Source: Eledone cirrhosa (lineage: Eukaryota). From it: a DNA stretch of 64,000 nt. A program made the translations under genes and the position numbers. Numbering within the stretch: position 1 is the stretch's first letter; every line of letters starts with the position of its first letter. The notes beneath the pieces are model-generated. The model was not told the DNA's origin and did not search any database. It saw only the letters and a list, made by a program, of their open reading frames with translations. Below are positions 6,936-7,120 of this stretch, piece after piece. The stretch spans positions 9,486,001 to 9,550,000 of the forward strand of contig OZ024748.1 in NCBI GenBank assembly GCA_964016885.1, read 5' to 3'.

Positions 6936-7120
6936 TTAACAGTGCATAGTTTCCTTGTGGGTGACATGAACTGATTGACCTACTTGTTTACCAAGATCGT
7001 CAACACAATAACAAGCACTTCCAGTACATTGAATTTTTCTGTAATTACCATTGGCTTCACAACTGAATGTTTTACCAACCATACCAGTCTTCCCATATAC
7101 AAACTTATGGCGGGCACAGT
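6936..7120 (-). CDS. Paralog A exon 6 (TY2 and stop)
   Basis: tttcag acceptor; [24 protein letters not shown] followed by AATAAA. Confidence 0.9.

Follow-up and report, generated by a model that had tools for sequence, protein, structure and literature searches.

Two copies of one gene in Eledone cirrhosa, arranged head-to-head, have diverged most strongly in their last coding exon, where 18 nonsynonymous differences are found against a single synonymous one. This exon encodes the second thyroglobulin-1 domain (TY2) of what are predicted to be likely secreted, likely multi-headed protease inhibitors. We propose that positive selection has probably been retuning TY2, rather than that the domain is decaying. 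A first-pass annotation of the sequence had claimed diversifying selection; this is the best reading for TY2, but it is weaker than was claimed, with a likelihood-ratio test (LRT) within the exon giving p 0.017–0.094.

The copies, A on the minus and B on the plus strand, lie about 37 kb apart within the window, by which we mean the whole 64,000-nt stretch analyzed (contig OZ024748.1, here C8, positions 9,486,001–9,550,000; GC content 29%, in a genome of 3.0 Gb). Each has five coding exons, of equal lengths in A and B (166, 102, 133, 80 and 185 nt; Table 1), and each gives an intact 221-aa frame with GT-AG introns when spliced by coordinates; the exon previously labeled ‘exon 6’ is thus coding exon 5. 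The encoded protein begins with a likely signal peptide, called by eye from the hydrophobic N-terminus, followed by an AmFPI-1-like domain of 12 cysteines (the N-domain) and then two thyroglobulin-1 domains, TY1 and TY2. Its nearest named relatives are octopod proteins. An acceptor-like site lies directly before the ATG, and a search of the sequence for an upstream untranslated exon found none. Exon 2 is joined to exon 3, and exon 3 to exon 4, in one contig of run X4, which has no record as an RNA run; at least one of the two copies must therefore be spliced. Searches with DNA and protein show at least two close copies in the genome, A and B being the sole ones among the matches listed.

Table 1. 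Coding exons and 3′ flanks of the two copies, in window coordinates.
Feature	Position	Strand	Content
Copy A coding exon 1	16879..17044	-	First half of the AmFPI-1-like domain (12 Cys), preceded by a likely signal peptide; 2 nt unlike B
Copy A coding exon 2	15990..16091	-	Second half of N-domain, with a cluster of 4 aa differences at residues 69-73
Copy A coding exon 3	13544..13676	-	First half of TY1; terminal E-A-T vs G-S-R in B and G-S in outgroups
Copy A coding exon 4	12957..13036	-	Second half of TY1; identical to B
Copy A coding exon 5	6936..7120	-	Entire TY2 domain and stop; PF00086, E 3.8e-8
Copy A 3′ UTR/flank	6687..6935	-	Homologous to B; AATAAA at 6865
Copy B coding exon 1	54389..54554	+	Counterpart of A exon 1
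Copy B coding exon 2	54967..55068	+	Counterpart of A exon 2
Copy B coding exon 3	56330..56462	+	Counterpart of A exon 3
Copy B coding exon 4	57290..57369	+	Counterpart of A exon 4
Copy B coding exon 5 (TY2)	58494..58678	+	Counterpart of A exon 5
Copy B 3′ UTR/flank	58679..58927	+	Homologous to A; AATAAA at 58749

Several other elements lie in or near the window. A third, distant gene with two TY domains and the same exon layout sits about 45–60 kb beyond it (C8:9592408-9607664; L015, L016), and more terminal TY exons, 40–59% identical, occur on the same contig at C8:9639474, C8:10951169 and C8:30562997. About 1.4 kb upstream of the start codon of copy A is an unbroken LINE-type frame of 1040 aa (18401-21520, plus strand) with an endonuclease, a reverse transcriptase and then a PHD-finger match at residues 778-821; the matching place at copy B lacks it. 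Very long degenerate arrays of the (TA)n/(TACA)n type span 8723-12715 (4 kb), 22587-24267 (1.7 kb) and 26884-37164 (10 kb), the first of them occupying most of the last intron of copy A. A 270-aa open frame at 25681-26490 (plus strand), with no Pfam match above cut-off, is one that we take to resemble a retroelement remnant.

Coordinate splicing reproduced exactly the counts in the first-pass annotation. Over the whole coding sequence A and B differ at 33 nucleotides, 29 of them nonsynonymous (26 aa) and four synonymous, and 19 of these fall within the 185 nt of the last exon (10.3%), where 15 of the 61 residues are changed. Exon 2 carries four nonsynonymous and two synonymous differences, and exon 4 carries none. 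Exon 3 has six against zero (p 0.13–0.20), and we set it aside as a candidate for selection, the excess being not significant and half of it possibly one mutational event. In the 3′ flank, where homology stops at 6687/58927, 8 of 249 sites differ (3.2%), again as previously counted. All cysteines are retained in both copies, as the annotation had also observed; with P about 0.13 under neutral simulation, we dropped this as evidence on its own.

Exon 5 is more diverged than the UTR (Fisher p=0.004), and its nonsynonymous sites (18/144) are more diverged than all alignable non-coding DNA, where 42 of 1435 sites differ (2.9%, or about 97% identity; p=2e-6); silent sites of the coding sequence (4/148) differ at the same rate as non-coding DNA. 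The exon-versus-UTR contrast overstates the case, because it presumes one divergence time gene-wide and non-coding divergence is patchy: blocks range from 0/165 to 12/96 (0–12.5%; chi2 55.5, 13 df, p=3e-7), and those at the edges of homology reach 10–12.5%, the intron end adjoining exon 5 standing at 4/39. A UTR-only comparison was therefore rejected as the main test. Patchy divergence of this sort is an outcome of gene conversion between older copies in the account given in passages of PMC3924837. Exon 4 and the 165 intron bases that follow it are identical in A and B and likely represent a recent conversion tract. Introns 2 and 4 are for the most part unalignable, as are the outer flanks, and intron lengths are very different. 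Moving away from the non-homologous intron, differences along exon 5 thin out from 13/83 to 6/102 (p=0.049), with gaps of at most 42 nt between them.

A test of omega within the exon is unaffected by heterogeneity in conversion. Counting gives a last-exon omega of 5.2–6.9 (one-tailed p 0.055–0.019) and maximum likelihood (ML) 4.5–7.0 (LRT p 0.094–0.017), before correction for choosing one of five exons; the exon was picked after the data were seen, within a genome scan. Values of 0.7 or below are rejected (2dL 4.75, ML). Under plain F3x4, neither the exon (p=0.094) nor the whole coding sequence (p=0.20) reaches significance; for the latter, omega is 1.9–2.8 (p 0.20–0.035). The first-pass annotation had named dN/dS above 1 in three exons as what would support its claim; only the last exon behaves in this way, and exons 1-4 pooled give an omega of 1.1–1.5.

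Firmer support for selection emerges only when the sites conserved across the family are treated separately. Those with conservation of at least 80%, as scored in 91 of 118 homologs (<450 aa; 18 recognized cephalopod proteins excluded, some unrecognized ones possibly remaining), are changed at 0 of 18 positions, compared with 15 of 43 variable ones (p=0.002; p=0.058 at a 70% cut-off and p=0.064 at 90%). The substitutions in exon 5 are more conservative than those in 5000 neutral simulations (P about 0.004), and under neutral simulation the absence of any stop or cysteine loss has P about 0.05. Because the conserved sites are unchanged and the substitutions conservative, the TY2 scaffold remains under purifying selection. 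The variable sites show 18 changes per approximately 100 nonsynonymous sites, and a two-class codon model places their omega at 8–12 (p 0.001–0.014, or 0.006–0.07 after multiplication by five for the choice of exon). The entire selection case hangs on the single silent difference in about 42 sites, a divergence whose 95% interval (0.1–12.6%) overlaps that of nonsynonymous sites (7.6–19%).

It is also conceivable, if on balance unlikely, that constraint on TY2 is relaxed and that a conversion boundary falls nearby, so that variable sites drift neutrally and silent differences are scarce by chance. A similarly doubtful component of this explanation is that exon 5 split earlier than the remainder because the adjoining non-homologous intron hinders conversion. 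Such a history would account for the omega of about 1 in exons 1-4, the strong heterogeneity of neutral blocks with their diverged edges, the gradient along exon 5 and the plain LRT. However, it requires an omega of 1 at variable sites, which the two-class model rejects, and a neutral model in which divergence varies by block yields P 0.003–0.005 for 18 changes given one silent (0.010–0.016 with three adjacent pairs counted once). An older split under purifying selection would need 10–19 silent differences where one is seen (P 2e-4 or less).

Outgroup sequences bear on this alternative from both sides. TY2 evolves slowly among orthologs: compared with the O. vulgaris protein P0175, it differs at 0/61 residues in O. 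sinensis, 4/61 in O. bimaculoides and 12/61 in Argonauta, as against 15/61 between A and B. Derived TY2 changes, read from outgroup residues, fall on both copies (approximately nine sites in A and seven in B), and in TY2 only, A and B are each faster than P0175 (10:2, p=0.039; 7:0, p=0.016), a rate excess on both copies that argues against simple relaxation. The total distance from P0175 is nevertheless not greater in TY2 (12-15/61) than in TY1 (17/63), and shared-derived versus paralog-specific counts are 5:15 in TY2 and 11:5 and 11:6 elsewhere. These equal root-to-tip distances, together with the shared and specific counts and the exon gradient, would also fit an older split of exon 5.

A second alternative begins from the age of the pair. 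O. vulgaris, O. sinensis and Argonauta have two copies each, which in O. vulgaris and Argonauta lie on one contig with consecutive accessions and in O. sinensis on contig records of equal length; the pairs group by lineage in a TY1 tree, built without the rows that were incomplete for the domain. That a single old pair has undergone conversion would be a simpler reading of these sequences than separate duplications. If conversion has been continuous, selection might be shielding old functional differences in TY2, in an opsin-like divergence peak of the kind modeled in passages of PMC3924837, instead of quickly fixing new ones. The pairs in related species, their clustering by lineage and the lack of alignment between A and B deep in the introns and in the flanks all agree with this; so do V213, which A has in common with the second Octopus paralog, and the observation that 5 of the 10 TY2 sites separating the O. 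vulgaris pair also separate A from B (p=0.056; 0.22 among variable sites). We nonetheless regard shielded differences as distinctly improbable. A peak should raise silent divergence too, yet only one silent site in about 42 differs; gaps of no more than 42 nt would call for very short conversion tracts; and A and B come together in the TY2 tree (weak support, 80/74), with five derived residues in common. The red/green opsin peak, as far as those passages describe it, resembles the present case in its nearby paralogs, low intron divergence and single divergent exon, but here the silent sites within the peak are undiverged and the changes involve 15 residues and occur in both copies.

The part of the protein that separates the two copies also differs among lineages. 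The octopod orthologs (O. vulgaris CAI9734988.1, O. sinensis XP_029646879.1, Argonauta GAB1605670.1) are uncharacterized proteins auto-named nidogen-2-like or thyroglobulin, with the same architecture and paired arrangement and, in both Octopus species, the same length of 221 aa. Whereas the divergent part is TY2 in A and B, the O. vulgaris pair is most different in the N-domain (25/76), and in Argonauta the TY2 domains of the pair are identical and one model lacks an N-domain. Between O. vulgaris and O. sinensis, 7/76 N-domain residues differ in the second paralog (P0157 vs P0172) and 3/81 in the first; the N-domain of the second paralog is possibly fast-evolving in Octopus. The family itself has a broad distribution: HMMER search recovered named members from gastropods, a bivalve and a nemertean, whereas a word-indexed search for homologs of the 61-aa exon returned zero matches. 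A metagenome scan for outgroup coding DNA gave one locus from 47 candidate stretches, a weak 38-aa match only, which we set aside.

Both versions of the sequence are present in public contigs, which counters the assembly or consensus error that had been raised as a possible refutation. Runs X1-X4 represent two samples of one study, X1-X3 being one sample that may be the assembly's own. Contigs of all four match the last exon of copy B with 0 differences. In X4, one contig is identical to B starting at the acceptor (58494). A second shows 12 differences between 58496 and 58606, exactly as many as separate A from B in that interval; among the matches listed, contigs of X2 and X3 carry A's letters at five of the six later sites of exon 5. 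The A form of the exon 3 end is present in X1-X3 contigs at a depth of 3-4, about half of that for B (6.5-7.8). This lower depth and the possible identity of the X1-X3 sample with that of the assembly speak for an error, or for a false duplication built from two alleles; either is very improbable when set against the occurrence of both versions in short contigs from two samples, the very unequal introns and unalignable flanks, and the two copies in related species; errors would, moreover, not spare silent and conserved sites. A spliced X4 contig (window 13551-13676) joins A residues at codons 96, 105 and 107 to the G-S-R of B at 132-134. It is either a recombinant allele or an assembly chimera, and we set it aside as proof of conversion, contig assembly being able to merge near-identical copies.

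GC-biased conversion or clustered mutation is just as remote an explanation for the amino-acid count: three adjacent pairs occur among the 19 differences of exon 5 and the three exon 3 changes of copy A may be one event (an 8-mer match lies about 25 nt downstream), but about 1.8 such pairs are expected by chance, p is still 0.01–0.04 with pairs collapsed, and polarized changes have no clear GC direction (7 vs 5, hand count). Even taken together, the artefact explanations, from assembly error to conversion bias and clustered mutation, have very little probability.

Structural comparisons bear on the preferred reading, positive selection on TY2. PF00086 scores above cut-off in TY2 of A and B, in the TY1 exon of B and in two stretches of the orthologs. 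Each TY domain has six cysteines in both copies, with Cys-aromatic-Cys cores CFCT and CYCV, and appears to have the type 1A three-disulfide pattern, with putative pairing. The ortholog of O. vulgaris (221 aa) was modeled with AlphaFold from a 46-row alignment; mean pLDDT is 82, and pLDDT is 87-96 in the TY domains. TY1 of this model (residues 97-165) matches p41 (Z 6.3, rmsd 2.2, 62 aligned) and also the saxiphilin repeats; TY2 on its own aligned only to the IGFBP-1 C-domain (Z 4.7). The N-domain, in a low-confidence part of the model, matches AmFPI-1 (Z 5.3, rmsd 5.0, 71 aligned), and AmFPI-1 atlas matches of 0.78-0.79 serve as leads only. PF12190 is above cut-off in two homologs (P0183, P0112), with no Pfam match to it in the four cephalopod proteins scanned or in the window exons. 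These fold Z values are middling and are no proof of function.

With loop borders set by hand from the model, the TY2 differences fall at 5/8 residues of loop 1, 0/4 of loop 2 and 5/13 of loop 3. Loop 1 is enriched relative to the rest of the domain (10/53; p=0.017), and the three loops jointly give p=0.052 among variable sites. In thyropins the three loops occupy the protease cleft, according to portions of three reports (PMC6584486; PMC10889554; PMC7863939), the first of which, in the part we draw on, proposes loop 1 as the specificity loop. Its Gly and Pro are described as conserved in a section of PMC10889554; TY1 has both (G113 and P117), and TY2 has G176 without the Pro, as do other aligned octopod proteins. 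The TY1 loop 2 Gly-Ser, present in all 10 outgroup rows covering it, is lost in copy A, whose three exon 3 changes lie within 7 nt of the donor. An 8-mer in A's own intron, about 25 nt downstream (window 13505-13555, minus strand), matches the E-A codons of that copy. It lies in a 31-nt piece that only A has, in place of 359 nt in B; a single templated event may have removed the Gly-Ser.

A and B may thus be compared with the thyropins (MEROPS I31: p41 fragment, saxiphilin Thy1 repeats, equistatin, tick IrThy), inhibitors of papain-type or aspartic proteases, with which they share two six-Cys PF00086 domains, a predicted wedge fold, likely secretion and variation centered on the proposed specificity loop (loop 1; PMC6584486, in part). 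Unlike these, A and B add an N-terminal AmFPI-1-like domain, loop 1 of their TY2 is short and without the conserved Pro, copy A lacks the TY1 Gly-Ser, and their inhibition is a prediction; inhibition is unconfirmed for many Tg1 domains, in the words of one section of PMC7863939. The N-domain resembles the AmFPI-1 fungal protease inhibitor (PF12190, PDB 3BT4), a serine-protease inhibitor, in its fold match and in its 12 cysteines, which form six pairs in AmFPI-1 (PMC3278429), but is fused to TY domains and has no Pfam match of its own; some insect AmFPI-1 members are non-inhibitory (PMC3278429).

We propose that the inverted pair is older than its 3% divergence would suggest and is patchily homogenized by gene conversion. 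After the last homogenization of exon 5, the rate of fixation would have been several times higher for amino-acid changes than for silent ones, with most of the former in predicted loops 1 and 3, the loops proposed to set protease specificity in other thyropins. TY2 would thereby have been pushed apart in both copies with its disulfide scaffold held fixed. The partners may be papain-type cysteine proteases, likely foreign ones from a parasite, microbe or prey, which is the most speculative step; an interacting partner, as the first-pass annotation envisaged, is favored on this proposal but is inferred only. A and B would then be tuned to, and thus cover, different enzymes. Two differently tuned inhibitors are favored because of the loop 1 changes, the TY1 Gly-Ser lost from A and the N-domain cluster at residues 69-73.

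The same annotation likened the pattern to that of toxins, a likeness that is not supported: the family is widespread in invertebrates, has two close copies here and has a protease-inhibitor fold. As in the accelerated evolution of conotoxins and snake venoms, coding differences exceed non-coding ones and the cysteine frame and signal region are conserved; unlike those, there are two copies (at least two in the genome) and no large family, and the excess is in one exon. Coleoid venom families are mostly under purifying selection, as stated in part of PMC4619613. The O. vulgaris posterior salivary gland proteome includes a 227-aa signal-bearing TY protein detected by two peptides (passages of PMC7693380), and through putative orthology with it a link of A and B to saliva is possible. 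A literature search, thin on subscription journals, found no study on selection in this family. The pair adds a further example to a well-known pattern, in which duplicated genes for secreted, Cys-rich proteins diverge quickly in amino-acid sequence, so that the general surprise is modest.

More tentatively, A and B could belong to an old octopod tandem pair encoding a three-headed inhibitor (one AmFPI-like and two thyropin heads) in which conversion homogenizes the copies and lineage-specific selection parts one head. It is an equally speculative part of this reading that the head concerned is TY2 here and the N-domain in O. vulgaris and O. sinensis, with loss of the N-domain in Argonauta. 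If true, the three-headed reading would describe a modular arms race against foreign proteases. If selection on TY2 is real, the two TY2 domains would provide a natural pair of near-identical thyropin domains with 15 selection-picked differences, and thus a test of loop 1 as the specificity determinant. They would also offer a handle on an uncharacterized, widespread family of invertebrate inhibitor-like proteins.
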